Assembly: GCA_903872035.1 (NCBI GenBank)
Contig: CAIQIZ010000029.1
Coordinates: 479-64,478, forward strand
Direction: 5' to 3'
DNA length: 64,000 nucleotides
Origin: an uncultured bacterium
Lineage (GTDB): Bacteria > Patescibacteriota > Minisyncoccia > Phycocordibacterales > PALSA-1337
The position numbers were made by a program, and so were the translations under genes. The notes beneath the pieces are model-generated. The model was not told the DNA's origin. It searched no databases and worked only from the letters and a program-made list of their open reading frames with translations. The stretch's first letter is position 1, and every line of letters begins with the position of its first letter. Shown here in pieces: positions 4,177 through 36,909 of the stretch.

Positions 4177-4563
4177 TTAGTACGGCAAACTGGCGAAATA
4201 TTTCTTGGTTTCAGCGATCACATCCTCGACAGAATGATCGGCTTTGACGAAATACTTGAAAACGCCATTTTCCAGCGCATCCGCGACAACAGTTGGGTTA
4301 TGGAGCTGAGTAAGCAGTACGATACAGGCAGTCTTTCCCCAGACATCCTTGCGAAGCTCTTTGATAAACTGCAGGCCGGTTAAGACCGGCATGACTACGT
4401 CGACCCAGATGAGGTCGGGGTGCTCTTTTATAGCCAAATCCAAGCCGGTCTTGCCATCGGCAGCCTTGAAGACTGTGATACCTTCCGCTTCCAGAGTTTC
4501 AGACAAAACAGTCCGGAATGCCTGATCATCTTCCACAACCAAGACTTTTTTTAGTGTTCTCAT
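4177..4563 (-). CDS. Response regulator, stand-alone CheY-like receiver domain
   Basis: KVLVVEDD...phosphoacceptor region DVVMP...LTGLQFIKELR. 128 aa with no output domain. Directly downstream of the histidine kinase. Confidence 0.8.
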   Translation of the reverse strand: MRTLKKVLVVEDDQAFRTVLSETLEAEGITVFKAADGKTGLDLAIKEHPDLIWVDVVMPVLTGLQFIKELRKDVWGKTACIVLLTQLHNPTVVADALENGVFKYFVKADHSVEDVIAETKKYFASLPY

Positions 4564-8971: not shown

Positions 8972-9160
8972 ATGGAAGAAGCATTGAATACGCCGATCCT
9001 TTCGGGTCAGCCTTTACCGAAGCATGAGCATCGTCGAATGATGATAGGATTCATCGCGATCGCTGTCATACTCATCATCGCAATTTTGGCAATTTATTAT
9101 TTTGCTTCGAGACCTTCATCAAACATATCCACCGCTCCAGTAGCTCAAAGACAGCCTTAG
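8972..9160 (+). CDS. Small single-pass membrane protein, hypothetical
   Basis: A 62-aa ORF with one transmembrane segment. Confidence 0.25.
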   Translation: MEEALNTPILSGQPLPKHEHRRMMIGFIAIAVILIIAILAIYYFASRPSSNISTAPVAQRQP

Positions 9161-9343
9161 AAAATAGAATTATTTCACTCGTGTGCACCCTGCAGGGCTC
9201 GGTCCCTACGGGACCGATACAGTCTTCGCATTTTCTCAGACTCGATATTCTCGTCCTCGAAAATATGCTCAGACTTTTCTCGCCCTTGACGCAAGTCGCA
9301 CATGCGACTTGCTCAGGGTGCACAAATTCGCTCTGCTCATTTG

Positions 9344-9417
9344 TGCACCCTGCAGGGCTCGAACCTGCGACCTCACCCGTGTGAAGGGTGCGCTCTAGCC
9401 AACTGAGCTAAGGGTGC
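9344..9417 (-). tRNA. tRNA-Val (anticodon CAC)
   Basis: Reverse complement folds as gcaccct-...-ttCACac-...-gcagg ttcgagc cctgc-agggtgc-a. No CCA encoded. Confidence 0.8.
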
Positions 9418-9462
9418 TCTTTACAAAAACGAAATCCGAATCTCGAAATACTAAACGATCGT

Positions 9463-9533
9463 TCGGGCTGCCGAGAATCGAACTCGGACCGCATCCACCC
9501 CATGGATGTATACTACCACTATACTACAGCCCG
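9463..9533 (-). tRNA. tRNA-Pro (anticodon GGG)
   Basis: Acceptor cgggctg/cagcccg, anticodon stem catcc/ggatg with loop atGGGgt, T-arm ccgag-ttcgatt-ctcgg. Confidence 0.75.
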
Positions 9534-9575
9534 CACTTACCATTTGAAACATACTACCACCATACTACAGCCCGG
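9534..9575 (-). repeat. Partial 5' copy of a tRNA-Pro-like gene abutting the intact tRNA-Pro(GGG)
   Basis: Minus-sense cgggctgtagtatggtggtagtat duplicates the first ~24 nt of the adjacent tRNA, then diverges. Confidence 0.6.
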
Positions 9576-9757
9576 TATCATCACCATCAAAGCGGCAGTT
9601 CGTATAGCTTACGATATTTTTGATAATTTCTCAATTTATGTTACCATTCTCACGTTACTGATTCGAGTTCGTATTTTTCGGGCCTAAACTAGCTTCGCTA
9701 AATTAGGCCCATCGCTCGAACGAAATGAATATGGTATATTCACTTCGCTTCTCGCTC

Positions 9758-9828
9758 GGGCCTATAGTAAAGCGGTATTACGCGTCCATGGCATGGACGA
9801 AGTCGGGGTCCGACTCCCCGTAGGTCCA
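9758..9828 (+). tRNA. tRNA-Ala (anticodon GGC), with an atypical T-loop UCCGACU
   Basis: G3:U70 alanine identity pair present. Anticodon loop atGGCat. C55 replaces the near-universal U55, so it may be a variant or a pseudogene. Confidence 0.6.
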
Positions 9829-9911
9829 CAAAAACAAGGAGCTCGCTTGCGAGCGACTATGTTTTTGTAGGATGTCGCCTGCAGGGCGGCGCCACATGCA
9901 GGAAGAATAGT

Positions 9912-9982
9912 CGGGGCGTAGTATAGTGGTAGTATACACGCTTCGGGTGCGTGAGGTCCGAGTTCGATTCTCGGCGCCCCGA
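9912..9982 (+). tRNA. tRNA-Pro (anticodon CGG)
   Basis: Acceptor cggggcg/cgccccg, anticodon loop ttCGGgt, T-arm ccgag-ttcgatt-ctcgg. Confidence 0.75.
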
Positions 9983-9988
9983 CAAGAT

Positions 9989-10059
9989 GGGCCTATAGTA
10001 AAGTGGTATTACGCGTCATTCGCATTGACGAAGCGGGAGTTCGATTCTCCCTAGGTCCA
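9989..10059 (+). tRNA. tRNA-Ala (anticodon CGC)
   Basis: Acceptor gggccta/taggtcc with G3:U70. Anticodon loop ttCGCat. T-loop ttcgatt. Confidence 0.75.
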
Positions 10060-10162
10060 CTGAAGATCTGCAGCCTTGTGCATAACTTCCCCGCTCACAA
10101 TTGACAATAATTTGCTATAATGGGGACGTCCATTTATTAATTATAAACATAATTTTAATATC

Positions 10163-10405
10163 ATGAAATCACTCCACGGAGTAGCATTTATTTTATTGAT
10201 TATCGGCGGTATCAATTGGCTTCTGGTTGGCCTTGGAATGTGGTTCGGCGGAAACTGGAATGTCGTCACTCTTATTCTCGGCGGTGTTCCATGGCTCGAA
10301 GCATTGGTTTATGTCCTGGTAGGCCTATCAGCCATCAAGCTTCTCATGTGTCACAAGAAGACTTGCAAGGAATGTGACAAGGGAGCCGCTCCGGCACAGA
10401 TGTAA
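10163..10405 (+). CDS. DUF378-family small membrane protein
   Basis: 'GGINWLLVGLGMWFGGNWNVVTLILGG' is the characteristic DUF378 double-transmembrane motif. A terminator follows. Confidence 0.65.
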   Translation: MKSLHGVAFILLIIGGINWLLVGLGMWFGGNWNVVTLILGGVPWLEALVYVLVGLSAIKLLMCHKKTCKECDKGAAPAQM

Positions 10406-10445
10406 TTCAGCAGAATTACCTACTGGGTAGTATTTGAAAAGTTTC

Positions 10446-10472
10446 GGATGAAAAAACCATCTCAAAACGAGG
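10446..10472 (+). terminator. Intrinsic terminator
   Basis: Hairpin accatctc-aaaac-gaggtggt followed by tttttt. Confidence 0.55.
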
Positions 10473-10533
10473 TGGTTTTTTCTATCAATGTACAACCATT
10501 CGTTTTTGGGTTATTATAGCCAAACCGTCAAAA

Positions 10534-10588
10534 GGGCCCGTAGCTCAATTGGTAGAGCGTCCCGATGCACATCGGGGAGGCAAGCGGT
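10534..10588 (+). pseudogene. 5' fragment of a tRNA-Ala-like gene, from the acceptor through the 5' strand of the T-stem
   Basis: The first 26 nt are identical to tRNA-Ala(UGC) at 10864. It has a different, irregular anticodon arm (tcccg-atgcacat-cgggg, an 8-nt loop). It shares aggcaagcggt, then runs straight into the GIY-YIG ORF. Confidence 0.6.
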
Positions 10589-10591
10589 ACT

Positions 10592-10855
10592 ATGTCTTTC
10601 GTATATATCTTACAGAGCAAAAAGACAGGCCGATACTACATAGGTAGCACAAATGATTTGTCGCGACGATTAGCGGAGCATAATTCAGACCAAACCAAAT
10701 CGCTCATCTACCAAAGGCCATTGGTTGTAGTATTCTCGAAAGAATACGGTAACTTGTCAGATGCGAGAAGGATAGAAAGGAAATTGAAGAAAATGAAAAG
10801 TCGGAGTATCATCGAGCACATAGTACACGACCAGGAGATCAAAGTTGTTTCATAA
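10592..10855 (+). CDS. Small stand-alone GIY-YIG nuclease (YazA/UPF0213-like)
   Basis: 'FVYILQSKKTGRYYIGSTNDLSRRLAEHN' is a textbook GIY-YIG motif. About 88 aa. Confidence 0.8.
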   Translation: MSFVYILQSKKTGRYYIGSTNDLSRRLAEHNSDQTKSLIYQRPLVVVFSKEYGNLSDARRIERKLKKMKSRSIIEHIVHDQEIKVVS

Positions 10856-10863
10856 CGTCATCA

Positions 10864-10939
10864 TGGGCCCGTAGCTCAATTGGTAGAGCGCCTCATTTGC
10901 AATGAGGAGGCAAGCGGTTCGAAACCGCTCGGGTCCACC
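10864..10939 (+). tRNA. tRNA-Ala (anticodon UGC), with CCA encoded
   Basis: Acceptor gggcccg/cgggtcc with G3:U70. Anticodon loop ttTGCaa. T-arm agcgg-ttcgaaa-ccgct. Confidence 0.85.
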
Positions 10940-11076
10940 ACTGGCAAAAATGCCGAGACTTGTTCTCGGTATTTTTGACAGTGAGGGGGCGGTCGGGAGT
11001 GGTTTCGAAGGACGGAGCGAGCGGAGGCGAGCGAGTCGGGGTCGCGGGCCGAGCCAGCAGGCGAGGACCCGTGACC

Positions 11077-11096
11077 GAAACCGCTCGGGTCCACCA
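11077..11096 (+). repeat. Direct repeat of the 3' 20 nt of tRNA-Ala(UGC), located 137 bp downstream of the gene
   Basis: gaaaccgctcgggtccacca occurs at 10920-10939 and again at 11077-11096. The segment between them is GC-rich and purine-rich with GCGAG-like repeats. Confidence 0.7.
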
Positions 11097-11259
11097 CAAG
11101 TCTCACTATTTCATGGCTTGACTAAGCGGTAATATCGTTGTCTTTAAATATGGCTTGCCTTTCTGCTAATACTGTGCTATACTATTAACAGTTTAAAACA
11201 CGGTAAACAACTGCCCTCTGTACCCTTTTAGGGAAGATGGCAAGAAAGGACCTTGTAAT

Positions 11260-11631
11260 ATGATTAGATTCGCTTGTAAGTGGTTTAAGCGCTGCGGCGG
11301 CTGGCTGGTAATCGCCGCACTCTTCATCGGCCTAGTAATATCGATCCGCTCCTGCAAATCGCCGTCACCGGAAAAAGTGGCGCATGCACGTGCCATGACC
11401 ACGGAATTGACGACGCTCGTACGCGGAGATTTGGTACATATCAATTATGACTGGGAGATTGTGAGCTCGTGCACCACAGAAACCCTAATAACTGTGAGCT
11501 TCCGTGATCAGAAGTACGTCAATCGCGAGACATCTCGTGCAAGATGGATCGTCGATCGTGTGGTTGGTAAATCGGACACCAACAGTTACTCAGCAGTTTG
11601 TGTTGACCTCATTACACGGATGGTTCACTAA
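11260..11631 (+). CDS. Hypothetical protein with an N-terminal membrane anchor
   Basis: A 123-aa ORF with a hydrophobic N-terminus and a downstream terminator. Confidence 0.4.
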   Translation: MIRFACKWFKRCGGWLVIAALFIGLVISIRSCKSPSPEKVAHARAMTTELTTLVRGDLVHINYDWEIVSSCTTETLITVSFRDQKYVNRETSRARWIVDRVVGKSDTNSYSAVCVDLITRMVH

Positions 11632-11645
11632 CGCCGTCCTCCCAT

Positions 11646-11692
11646 AGTCCCACAAGGAAAGTCCTACGACTCCTCGTGGGACTTTCTCTTTA
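11646..11692 (+). terminator. Intrinsic terminator between convergent genes
   Basis: agtcccac...gtgggact stem followed by ttctctttat. Confidence 0.55.
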
Positions 11693-11717
11693 TCTGAATA
11701 ATATACAAATTCCAATA

Positions 11718-12704
11718 TTAGCTCCTACTCAACGCCAACTCGATGACATGATCAACCAGCTCATACGTGTCGCTGCCGACAGCGCGAAGAGCTTTGGGCA
11801 TGAGAGATTCGCCGGTCAGACCTGGCAAAGTATTCACTTCAAGCACATAGATCCCCCGCCGCGGATGGATGATGAAATCAGAACGGGAATAGTGGCGCAA
11901 ACCGAGCACTTGGTGGATCTTTCGCGCCAGGCTCTCGATGGCACGCTTGAACATATCTTGAAAAGTAGCGGGCACGATCTCTTGGGACATGCCTTGATAC
12001 TTGGCTTCGTAGTCGAAGAACTTGGTCATGGGACGGATCTCTATGGGTGGCAAGGCATACAATTCCTGGCCACGAAATCCTTCGATGACGCCACAGGTCG
12101 CTTCGATGCCTGGAATGAATTCTTCTATCATGACTGAATCAGAATGGAGAGAGGCCGCCTTCAAAGCTTCGGGCAATTCGTTGTAATAGATGACCTTGGT
12201 CACGCCGACCGACGAACCGCTTGCCGTTGGTTTGACGATGGCTGGCATAAGAAAGGAATGAAATAGATCGCCTGCAACATTTGTCGTATTATCCCTGATC
12301 AACGCTGATGGAATCTCCCTGCTGTAAGGCGAACGAATGCCATGATCCTTGAAAGCCTTCTTAGACAATACTTTATTCATTCCCACAGCCGAGCCTAATG
12401 AACCGCTTCCGGTAAAAGGCAAGCCGTGTGCCTCCAAAAAAGCCTGAACTTTTCCATCTTCGCCATAGGCGCCATGTAAGGCATTGAAAGCCACGTCGAT
12501 ATGTTTTGATGCGTCAGATGGCTGGATCGGGACGCCATTCATATGCCAAATGCCATTCTTATCAATAAAAACGTCACAGGCCTCGTACTTATCACTAAAT
12601 CGATCCTTGAGCACAGACAATACTGCCGCTCCGGAATTCAACGACACCTGGTATTCATTCGATGGCCCTCCGCGCAAAACGCCGACACGTGTGTGGTGAT
12701 TCAT
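11718..12704 (-). CDS. ddl: D-alanine--D-alanine ligase
   Basis: ATP-grasp fold. 'AFNALHGAYGEDGKVQAFLEAHGLPFTGSG' and the C-terminal 'EVNTLPGLT' motif. Confidence 0.9.
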   Translation of the reverse strand: MNHHTRVGVLRGGPSNEYQVSLNSGAAVLSVLKDRFSDKYEACDVFIDKNGIWHMNGVPIQPSDASKHIDVAFNALHGAYGEDGKVQAFLEAHGLPFTGSGSLGSAVGMNKVLSKKAFKDHGIRSPYSREIPSALIRDNTTNVAGDLFHSFLMPAIVKPTASGSSVGVTKVIYYNELPEALKAASLHSDSVMIEEFIPGIEATCGVIEGFRGQELYALPPIEIRPMTKFFDYEAKYQGMSQEIVPATFQDMFKRAIESLARKIHQVLGLRHYSRSDFIIHPRRGIYVLEVNTLPGLTGESLMPKALRAVGSDTYELVDHVIELALSRS

Positions 12705-36145: not shown

Positions 36146-36238
36146 TTTGATTTAGTATAGCCGATATGGTACATTTTCACATGTTCGTACGTTGAAAGCC
36201 AAATTCCGGTGTAGCTCAATGGTAGAGCAAGCGACTGT

Positions 36239-36792
36239 AGACGCATGATTTTTGATATACTTTTAAGTATGTCAGATATCAGGAAATATGCCGACCGAAG
36301 AGAAGCAATGATCAAAGCTGTTTCGAAACGTAGAAAGAAGATCAAAGCTCTCGCAATAGAATACAAAGGTGGGAAATACCAATTATGTGGTTATTCCCGC
36401 TATCAAGGCGCATTAGAATTGCATCATCGTGACCCAAAAGAAAAATCCTTTGGAATAGGAGAGAAAGGATATACTCGGTCATGGGATAGCGTTCGATGTG
36501 AATTGGATAAATGCATTCTCCTTTGTGCGAATTGTCACAGAGAAGTTGCGGCAGGCATACAGCAGCCTCCGAGAGAAATCTCGGTTGTAAACGAGGTGAA
36601 CTCGGGGAAACCCAACTAGAGCATTTCTAGGGGCAATCCCGAGCCAAGTCCGCGATCCGCGGAAAGGTGTAGAGACTATCCCTTTATGGGAGTACTCCGA
36701 CGTACGTCGGAGGAAGCGCCTCGTCCCTAAATCTGTCTTCGACAGACATGGGAATGATATAGTCCGCGCCACTAGTAACAGTGGATTACGCG
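36239..36792 (+). mobile_element. Group I intron (~554 nt) carrying an HNH homing endonuclease ORF
   Basis: The last exon nucleotide is U and the intron 3'-terminal nucleotide is G. Core elements are visible: R-like 'gagacta' and S element 'aatgatatagtccg' (P7 region). The ORF sits in the 5' peripheral region. Confidence 0.7.
36245..36619 (+). CDS. HNH homing endonuclease encoded in the intron
   Basis: 'CGYSRYQGALELHHRDPKEK...CILLCANCHREV' is an HNH zinc-finger nuclease motif. Alternative start at 36269 (MSDIRKY). Confidence 0.8.
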   Translation: MIFDILLSMSDIRKYADRREAMIKAVSKRRKKIKALAIEYKGGKYQLCGYSRYQGALELHHRDPKEKSFGIGEKGYTRSWDSVRCELDKCILLCANCHREVAAGIQQPPREISVVNEVNSGKPN

Positions 36793-36909
36793 TAATCGCT
36801 TGGTTGTAGGTTCGAGTCCTACCACCGGAGCAATTTTTTCCAGCATTATCTCCCGATGTTCTTTTTTGATACCCCAGACAGGGTTCAGAACTTTTGGTAT
36901 ACTTTGTAA

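Follow-up and report, generated by a model that had tools for sequence, protein, structure and literature searches.

A probable selfish GIY-YIG nuclease element resident in a tRNA-Ala transcription unit of an uncultured Patescibacteria genome

We describe a small GIY-YIG nuclease gene that sits inside a tRNA-Ala(UGC) transcription unit of an uncultured bacterium of the Patescibacteriota. The stretch of DNA that was analysed, which we call the window, is 64,000 nucleotides (nt) of contig CAIQIZ010000029.1 (GenBank assembly GCA_903872035.1), and the locus takes up positions 10489–11097 of its plus strand. In our judgement this locus is probably a resident selfish element: a free-standing GIY-YIG gene within a tRNA transcription unit, of the homing type known from SegB. 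The tRNA gene itself now exists as three pieces, namely a 5′ partial copy behind what is predicted to be the native promoter, a complete copy 3′ of the nuclease open reading frame (ORF), and a 3′ fragment anchored in the T-loop. Its relatives mostly adjoin tRNA genes too, and this family of tRNA-resident elements is apparently large and undescribed; a literature search that was not exhaustive turned up no paper on minimal GIY-YIG genes linked to tRNAs, or on the palindrome that goes with them.

Results

Anatomy of the tRNA-Ala locus

An earlier note, made from the bare sequence, had listed the pieces of this locus. All of them were found and, two lengths apart, their coordinates were confirmed when we checked them with ARAGORN, an ORF listing, repeat finding, Rfam and Pfam. 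The pieces follow one another on the plus strand. A promoter-like site located by a consensus scan (TGTACA-17-TATTAT, 10489–10517) is read as the native tRNA promoter, now standing ahead of partial copy, ORF and tRNA alike. Exact repeats then define the 5′ partial copy of tRNA-Ala(UGC), 55 nt long (10534–10588), which covers tRNA positions 1–26 and 44 to about 54–56 and breaks off in the T-loop. Two blocks of it (10534–10559, 26 nt, and 10576–10588, 13 nt) are identical to the intact tRNA and the anticodon arm alone differs, reading TCCCGATGCACATCGGGG (18 nt) where the intact tRNA has CCTCATTTGCAATGAGG (17 nt). What had been described as an aberrant 8-nt anticodon loop is instead a conserved palindromic hairpin, with a stem of 7–8 base pairs (10560–10577), that replaces the anticodon arm at many tRNA types in relatives. 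Together with the adjoining AGG, its 3′ arm forms a GGAGG Shine–Dalgarno-like site (10576–10580) 11 nt ahead of the ATG.

The nuclease ORF (10592–10855) starts at this ATG, 3 nt past the end of the partial copy, and stops with the TAA at 10853–10855. It is followed by an intact tRNA-Ala(UGC) at 10865–10940 (ARAGORN; Rfam 69.4 bits), which has the G3:U70 pair and an encoded CCA and is presumably functional. An intrinsic-terminator hairpin, CCGAGA-CTTGT-TCTCGG between an A-run and a T-run (10945–10977), was located by a scan and by reading the sequence; the scan listed it on the minus strand, and on the plus strand the T-run TATTTTT lies 3′ of the stem. This terminator would close a unit made up of partial copy, ORF and tRNA.

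Between the intact tRNA and the 3′ fragment lie 135 nt. The earlier note had given a spacer of 137 bp, rich in GC and purines, and that character holds for one part of what is in fact a composite: a filler of 97 nt (10979–11075; 73% GC in a window of 47% GC, 68% purine) joined to the terminator hairpin. The filler contains an imperfect inverted copy (77%) of the tRNA 3′ end at 10988–11009. Nothing like the filler was seen in any other fetched locus or elsewhere in the window, so that it is unique to the species; a motif of the GC-rich spacer that seemed to be shared, AGCGAGCGGAG, did not hold up on checking. The last piece, at 11076–11097, is a direct copy of tRNA positions 56–76 plus one base (identical to 10920–10941). 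It is exact, as had been noted, and is 22 nt long rather than 20; we read it as 3′ tRNA debris anchored in the T-loop.

Chance does not produce exact repeats of 26, 13 and 22 nt inside 600 bp. Six contigs of the species from four different samples (L001–L003 and L092–L094) agree at every one of the 855 nt that separate the flanking genes, so that an assembly artefact, which the earlier note had named as a way in which its reading could fail, is ruled out. The leader formed by the partial copy folds no better than shuffled sequences (z = 0.14).

Between the 3′ fragment and the gene for D-Ala-D-Ala ligase (Ddl) lies an orphan ORF of 123 amino acids (aa; 11260–11631, plus strand), whose only database match is itself. 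It is missing from two relatives (L095 and L228) in which the tRNA abuts Ddl, and may have come in together with the insertion.

The same site in related genomes

For comparison with relatives we used the window's Ddl as the anchor of synteny; the 123-aa ORF, being an orphan, is useless for this purpose. The closest relative found, L095, has a Ddl 81% identical to that of the window and shares its gene order: a tRNA-Val/Pro/Ala/Pro/Ala cluster, DUF378, a terminator, tRNA-Ala(UGC), Ddl, UvrC and UvrA. At the site in question L095 has a plain tRNA, with no GIY-YIG ORF, 5′ partial copy, palindrome, spacer or 3′ fragment. Further empty sites were found in L228 (Ddl 69%), L096/L097 (72%) and L226 (70%). 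The earlier note had proposed a comparison with genomes that lack the nuclease gene, and such insertion-free loci do exist (L095, L228, L096 and L226); a lack of them was among the note's own grounds for refutation, and its reading stands up to that check.

The sequence upstream tells which of the two window copies occupies the old position. The 60 nt ahead of the 5′ partial copy align with those ahead of the L095 tRNA at 39 of 60 positions, including the promoter-like TGTACA-17-TATTAT (score 12; 300 random 60-mers gave −11.7 ± 4.3, with a maximum of 1), whereas the 60 nt ahead of the intact window tRNA do not align with L095 (score −4). Therefore the partial copy sits at the ancestral start of the gene, behind its own promoter. 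The intact window tRNA is, for its part, identical over positions 1–73/74 to the tRNAs at the empty sites of L095 and L228, and looks like a duplicate of the host gene. The suggestion that the element carries its own replacement tRNA accordingly finds no evidence in the window; foreign-looking intact tRNAs are seen in L009, L019 and L021.

One relative preserves a decayed form of the insertion. In L227 (Candidatus Taylorbacteria, Ddl 70%) the tRNA-Ala(UGC) is followed by a terminator, an inverted copy of the T-arm, a direct copy of tRNA positions 54–75 and a truncated family ORF of 45 aa. The direct copy starts from tRNA position 54 and lies 152 nt past the tRNA; there is no 5′ fragment, and a segment analogous to the window's filler is present, with its inverted T-arm copy. 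By a 12-mer scan, copies of tRNA fragments occur within 500 nt at both loci that have the ORF or a remnant of it (the window and L227) and at none of the four empty loci. L009 is a filled form of a Ddl–tRNA–NUDIX arrangement that is empty in L096. The same site is thus filled in the window and in L009, empty in L095, L228, L096 and L226, and decayed in L227. This comparison shows that the locus gained the ORF in this lineage, from an ancestral state of a single tRNA-Ala(UGC) gene behind its own promoter, which relatives still show. Gain, fixation, decay and absence among relatives form the pattern expected of a selfish nuclease gene.

Empty alleles within the species were also looked for by way of the DUF378 and 123-aa proteins. 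Contigs that seemed to lack the gene were merely un-annotated, and their DNA was identical.

A small Cys-rich ORF of about 28–30 aa (MAD..C..C..H...C.C.C) adjoins tRNA-Ala(UGC) in L095 (6190–6290, minus strand) and in L227 (4939–5025), and is missing in the window.

The nuclease

The 87-aa product is a stand-alone, minimal domain of the UPF0213/Slx1-like kind. It matches the Pfam GIY-YIG family PF01541 over residues 2–70 (E = 7.3e-14; 52.3 bits, with a cut-off of 22.6). Across 36 homologues Y5, Y16, G18, R26 and H30 are invariant and E62 is conserved in at least 90%; all of these catalytic residues are present in the window ORF. The earlier note had likened the locus to a scar. The locus is more than that, for the ORF is intact with its full catalytic set. 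Profile matches in PDB are led by the uncharacterised UPF0213 proteins BH0048 and EF2693 (1zg2, 3.8e-12; 1ywl, 8.2e-11), followed by Slx1 (4e-5) and I-TevI. The catalytic domain alone fills the 87 aa and a separate DNA-binding domain is absent. Models of group I intron endonucleases, phage homing endonucleases and PADLOC matched weakly, through the N-terminal motif only. Membership of a defence system was considered and dropped, as the PADLOC matches were weak and led only to generic homing-endonuclease or PDC-S14 models.

In the databases the window gene is either uncalled or called from an ATG inside the palindrome, as a protein of 96 aa. The N-terminal extensions MAIGK, MDIGK and MYIGK of database proteins are likewise the palindrome read through. 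A few database proteins of about 165–215 aa (P0168, P0179 and P0247) hold two tandem copies of the 87-aa domain and are probably fused neighbours from tandem arrays.

A family of nuclease genes at tRNA genes

The nuclease has many relatives. A word-indexed search gave 46 close homologues. An exhaustive search, clustered at 50% identity, gave 3547 clusters, of which 208 reach E ≤ 1e-10; almost all of the proteins are 80–130 aa long. To these we added a protein-only scan with a 14-sequence alignment over one genome per species, which returned 148 relatives; the best 80, together with the loci collected earlier, were analysed as 82 non-redundant loci. A tRNA gene on the same strand directly adjoins the ORF at 75 of the 82 (51 downstream, 19 upstream, 5 on both sides). 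The adjoining tRNAs are of many types (Ala, Gly, Asp, Val, Ile, Lys, Glu, His, Phe, Pro, Thr and Met). Most hosts are Patescibacteria; Bacteroidota, Elusimicrobia, Omnitrophota and WOR-3 are also represented. In the protein tree, sequences from the same tRNA isoacceptor cluster together, and several switches between types are seen.

Gene and tRNA may even overlap. At 28 loci the tRNA begins 9 nt before the end of the ORF, and the stop codon is then always TAG and coincides with U8-A9-G10 of the tRNA. Many homologues end in -GL, -GP or -GR because this stop lies in tRNA positions 8–10. The window falls outside the pattern, with a TAA 9 nt upstream of its tRNA.

The loci have two main layouts. 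The first, type A, is found in the candidate phyla radiation (CPR) and includes the window: tRNA positions 1–26, the palindrome, tRNA positions 44 to about 56 with the break in the T-loop, a short linker, the ORF and an intact tRNA. Some type A loci have a second partial copy past the tRNA, running from the D-loop to the 3′ end with a palindrome (L009, L019, L021 and L038), and in others the unit is repeated in tandem (L052 and L023–L025). The second layout, type B, from Bacteroidota and some CPR members, is the mirror image, with an intact tRNA, the ORF 0–9 nt later, and a partial tRNA that runs from the D-loop to the 3′ end and carries a palindrome; it forms arrays of up to three units (L069, L037 and L053). 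The 5′ copies of the family stop within the T-stem or T-loop. The 3′ fragment is no necessary counterpart of the 5′ piece: most family members are without one, and L227 has one with no 5′ fragment. Partial copies usually match the neighbouring tRNA of their own genome. At four loci (L009, L019, L021 and L012) they resemble the tRNA of another lineage, as is expected from co-conversion or horizontal transfer.

The palindrome

Hairpins with an NCCGA..TCGGN core were found at 74 of the 82 loci, within −300/+400 nt of the ORF, at a density of 2.26 per kb near the ORF against 0.17 per kb in the outer flanks (13-fold). Around the constant CCGA/TCGG core the arms vary (TCCCGA, GTCCGA, CCCCGA, CTCCGA, AGCCGA and others). 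The palindrome stands in place of the anticodon arm, within D-loops, where TCAA is sometimes duplicated (L085 and L090), or in place of the T-loop (L053, L069 and L112). The same stem positions hold different pair types (UA, CG, GC or AU at 1:18, CG or UA at 2:17, UA or CG at 7:12), although the finder that produced this set demands complementarity and the paired percentages are partly circular. Stems are nearly always perfect Watson–Crick helices in which G-T pairs are very rare, and the loops are anywhere between 2 and 27 nt long; therefore a DNA hairpin or cruciform is suggested, rather than an RNA stem or a dimer site of fixed spacing. A count of G-T against A-C mispairs had too few imperfect stems to tell an RNA from a DNA hairpin.

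The palindrome also occurs away from the nuclease gene. In metagenomes the exact 18-mer TCCCGATGTACATCGGGA has at least 124 sites on at least 120 stretches of DNA. Among the matches listed, a family ORF is present within 600 nt of 7 sites, another 47 are near contig ends and 70 are solo sites with neither ORF nor tRNA within 600 nt; the flanks of the listed sites fall into 106 unrelated clusters of 33–71% GC, and 26 contigs have several sites. Many of the listed sites are intergenic or in a 5′ untranslated region (UTR), and some form the tips of larger hairpins or are enclosed by TCCCGA|TCGGGA. Viral contigs gave 8 palindrome sites; two control palindromes matched for composition gave 1 and 0 there. 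Comparison of L165 with L134 shows a palindrome in place of 9 nt. All 7 family ORFs in the 621 kb of metagenomic DNA listed are close to a palindrome, the distance being no more than 420 nt in 6 cases. Rfam returned no known RNA family around the solo palindromes, and a literature search did not find the palindrome sequence in any paper.

The window itself has two clear family palindromes, the hairpin of the 5′ partial copy and CTCCGACGTACGTCGGAG, and both lie inside mobile elements of tRNA genes. The latter, a perfect palindrome of 18 nt (36695–36712), is an extra insertion, relative to the Rfam consensus, in a group I intron (RF00028; 46.5 bits, with a gathering score of 50; E = 2e-10). This intron splits a tRNA-Asn(GUU) gene (36206–36830, plus strand), missed by ARAGORN, at anticodon position 35/36, and encodes an HNH endonuclease of 124 aa (36245–36619; PHROG HNH, E = 5e-25). 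Its insertion site is the unusual Patescibacteria site of PMC13011429.

Two further observations concern the palindromes of other loci. L112 contains a two-palindrome module derived from the 3′ part of a pseudo-tRNA (a hairpin, the variable loop and T-stem, and a second hairpin) at 964–1021 and again at 4491–4548, one copy behind the GIY-YIG ORF and a solo copy 3.5 kb away; the module is also present in L160 (3958), with 70 nt of left flank in common. This suggests that modules derived from pseudo-tRNAs are themselves copied. In L119 (1834–1991) the 18-mer marks the exact midpoint of a perfect inverted repeat whose arms are each about 70 nt long. This may be a true long palindrome, or else a foldback or an assembly chimera.

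Other tRNA genes of the window

Some neighbouring tRNA genes have duplications or structured trailers of their own. A solo copy (96%) of tRNA-Pro(GGG) positions 1–24 lies at 9551–9574 on the minus strand, 17 nt upstream of the intact gene (9463–9533). It comes with no ORF and no palindrome, is absent from the syntenic region of L095, and may have been left by an element since lost or by a duplication of similar kind. The 3′ end of tRNA-Val(CAC) has an imperfect inverted copy (73%) just downstream (9295–9327 and 9339–9371), which resembles the copies at 10988–11009 and in L227. Behind tRNA-Ala(GGC) and tRNA-Ala(CGC) are conserved structured trailers (window 9830–9911 and 10061–10100; L095 6730–6790 and 6970–7040), in which a long hairpin takes in the CCAC of the tRNA 3′ end (CCACAAAAACA..TGTTTTTGTAGG) and a second hairpin follows (GATGTCGCC..GGCGRCGCCAC).

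Discussion

The earlier note had proposed a mobile or homing nuclease element that targets tRNA genes, or nuclease-driven gene conversion. The empty sites of relatives, the decayed locus of L227 and the existence of a whole family at tRNA genes speak for this general idea. The mechanism that we favour runs as follows. Judging by where the junctions fall, the nuclease would break tRNA genes at T-loop DNA (GTTCRANYC) and at a similar sequence of the D-loop (GYTCRAWT). Repair by recombination with an ORF-bearing copy, or unequal sister exchange, would then copy the ORF in. This copying would duplicate segments of the tRNA and give rise to 5′ partial copies, arrays, and direct and inverted debris, while an intact tRNA would always be kept. 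The strong tRNA promoter would drive expression of the ORF, carried along in the order leader copy, ORF, tRNA and terminator. Where the stop codon is U8-A9-G10, processing by RNase P would remove it, so that the message would have no stop and expression might plausibly be restrained; the window is exempt from this. The palindrome would be a DNA hairpin specific to the element, most likely a putative binding, cleavage or autoregulatory site of the nuclease itself.

Phage T4 and T6 offer the nearest parallel. Like SegB and other seg genes, the gene described here stands free among tRNA genes and encodes a GIY-YIG nuclease. Cleavage by SegB falls within tRNA genes and has the motif RAWTSGAAC; the gene is enriched beside phage tRNAs, promotes co-conversion and drives a UvsX/UvsY-dependent tandem amplification of tRNA and segB (PMC13096335; PMC2330249). 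The reverse complement of this motif, GTTCSAWTY, fits the T-loop consensus, which is our own reading and not that of the authors. The association with tRNA genes (75 of 82 loci), the T-loop breakpoints, the arrays and the patchy presence all have this SegB-like character. Unlike phage SegB, the family is cellular, in CPR, Bacteroidota and others; the window protein, at 87 aa against about 220 aa for SegB, is without the separate DNA-binding domain that helps to define such homing endonucleases; the family ORF physically overlaps the tRNA gene; and the pseudo-tRNA copies carry a conserved palindrome, for which SegB has no counterpart.

Several points weigh against this reading. A tblastn search of 50,697 phage genomes found no homologue that could point to a phage origin. 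Within the species there is no presence/absence polymorphism: among the contigs reached through the ORF (19), DUF378 (18) and the 123-aa gene (17), from an index that has the flanking genes in 52–55 blocks, all read as filled, and six have identical DNA. The proposed target, be it T-loop, D-loop or palindrome, is read from the positions of the junctions only. With no DNA-binding domain in its 87 aa, unlike SegB or I-TevI, the protein is not assured of sequence-specific homing. The retained intact tRNA keeps its T-loop, so that a nuclease cutting at T-loops could still attack a filled allele; the arrays do fit such a non-immune allele, which is unlike classical homing. A break in the T-loop also leaves the palindrome at the anticodon arm unexplained, and the occurrence of that palindrome in over 100 unrelated contexts without the ORF points to a biology centred on the hairpin, which the homing model does not cover.

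Could the palindromes themselves be the mobile or recognised units? The element would then resemble REP/RAYT or IS200, with an Slx1-like nuclease cutting the extruded hairpin or cruciform. Palindromes would spread genome-wide together with the ORF, replacing short local segments, and tRNA genes would be favoured both as hairpin targets, through their arms and loops, and as safe harbours. We consider this rather unlikely, though it partly overlaps the reading as a SegB-like homing element and may be complementary to it. It draws on the presence of palindromes on one or both sides of the ORF at 74 loci, with their 13-fold local enrichment; on their insertion in D-loops with duplication of TCAA and their replacement of anticodon arms and T-loops; and on near-perfect stems that enclose loops of 2–27 nt and hold varied pairs at the same positions. 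The 124 or more 18-mer sites, in 106 unrelated flank clusters among the matches listed, the excess in viral contigs (8 against 1 and 0), the replaced 9 nt of L165 and the 7 of 7 family ORFs with a palindrome nearby (6 within 420 nt) fit it as well, and Slx1, the nearest characterised structural relative, is a structure-specific nuclease. However, two palindromes in 64 kb, both in mobile elements of tRNA genes, do not make a dispersed repeat in this genome, and with 70 of the listed sites solo the link to the nuclease could be indirect. The strandedness count has too few imperfect stems, and the circularity of the finder bears on the pairing evidence here too. A further form of the idea is that the palindromes and the minimal GIY-YIG nuclease make up an unrecognised mobile system of hairpin and nuclease, a GIY-YIG counterpart of REP/RAYT and IS200/IS605; we think this possible, if doubtful.

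The remaining explanations fare worse. A domesticated host gene, with a cellular role at tRNA genes or transcripts such as repair or processing and with the partial copy and its hairpin as a regulatory leader, would suit the strict co-orientation and overlap with tRNA genes, the conserved catalytic residues, the match between protein clades and isoacceptors, and a locus that is fixed and invariant in the species. It is improbable in view of the absence of the ORF at the same locus in the closest relative and three others, its truncation in a fifth, the dozen tRNA types with their tandem arrays and pseudo-tRNA debris, and the patchy spread across phyla. Alternatively, the 22-nt repeat (10920–10941 and 11076–11097) might mark the attL and attR of an integrase island that has decayed to 134 bp and has nothing to do with the GIY-YIG gene. 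Integrases classically leave a tRNA 3′ end exactly duplicated, and the DNA between the repeats is foreign-looking (73% GC against 47%), but those 134 bp contain no ORF and there is no integrase, recombinase or island gene. The repeat begins in the T-loop, as the break of the 5′ copy does; L227 has the same 3′ debris and inverted copy beside a decayed family ORF while four empty loci have neither; and an inverted T-arm copy is unexpected from integrase recombination. We therefore hold such an island to be very improbable, and the earlier note, which had set the attL/attR pair aside, is borne out by the missing recombinase and the duplicated 5′ part. Least probable is a functional split or intron-containing tRNA, with the 5′ copy and the 3′ fragment joined at the RNA level. 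When joined in silico the pieces do fold as a cloverleaf (ARAGORN), with an 8-nt anticodon loop, yet the break lies in the T-loop, and joining leaves a T-loop of 6–7 nt without T54-Psi55. A terminator lies between the pieces. Rfam RF00028 detects no group I intron in 9000–12000 at E ≤ 1, though it does detect the genuine one at 36499–36785 (46.5 bits), and no Rfam match to any other intron was obtained in 9000–12000. In relatives a perfect palindrome takes the position of the supposed anticodon arm whichever tRNA is concerned, there is usually either no 3′ piece or one that overlaps with the 5′ piece, and the closest relative has an empty site. We have rejected this explanation on these grounds.

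How, then, does a SegB-like element of this kind compare with other known systems? Minimal URI/GIY-YIG proteins, UPF0213 (YhbQ/YazA-type) and Slx1, are the best profile matches and have the same size and conserved residues. UPF0213 genes are, however, single-copy and housekeeping-like, with no tRNA linkage, palindromes or mobility reported, and Slx1 needs Slx4 and a RING domain, unlike the 87-aa protein. REP/RAYT systems (REPtrons) and IS200/IS605 likewise pair a small nuclease gene with short flanking hairpin repeats; such repeats also have solo copies dispersed in genomes, and they keep their structure while the sequence covaries. The present nuclease is a GIY-YIG rather than an HUH/Y1 enzyme, the palindromes are perfect and 16–22 nt long, and the coupling to tRNA genes is tight. 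As to dispersal within one genome, the window has 2 family palindromes in 64 kb, and the several solo copies come from metagenomic and viral contigs.

Integrase islands, and the archaeal elements by which tRNA genes are split, leave their host with a restored tRNA and with displaced fragments (as in the Caldiarchaeum tRNA-Thr fragment model, PMC3293823). The targeting of tRNA genes, the restored tRNA and the displaced fragments are common to both cases; in contrast to these islands, the present element has no recombinase, duplicates the 5′ part as well and measures about 330 bp. Group I introns occupy tRNA genes of Patescibacteria at an unusual insertion site, most of them without homing endonuclease genes (Nakagawa et al. 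2026, PMC13011429). They share phylum and targets with the element described here, which has no ribozyme, interrupts the T-loop at the DNA level and rescues the tRNA by duplication and not by splicing. The overlap of ORF and tRNA, the palindrome-bearing pseudo-tRNAs and the dispersed solo palindromes are shown by none of the known families compared.

If the reading as a resident selfish element is right, it would bring to light a widespread family, with at least 3500 protein clusters from several phyla, whose members would be smaller than any other nuclease-based selfish elements known and are wedged in essential tRNA genes of cellular genomes without destroying them. It would also provide a cellular parallel to the SegB-driven amplification of tRNA loci in phages. 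For annotators it accounts for the ORFs called 'GIY-YIG nuclease family protein' beside tRNAs, for miscalled or uncalled ORFs and for pseudo-tRNA fragments. The link to dispersed palindromes raises the possibility of a new partnership between nuclease and hairpin, in which a nuclease consisting of the catalytic domain only has structure-specific targeting. Were the hairpin–nuclease system true, the nuclease would act on extruded hairpins, persist by nesting in tRNA transcription units and, in many phyla of bacteria, seed palindromes of 16–22 nt into pseudo-tRNAs, introns, UTRs and the loops of hairpins. For the Patescibacteria, the finding would mean that even the reduced genomes of the CPR still carry and turn over selfish DNA at their tRNA genes, beside group I introns.

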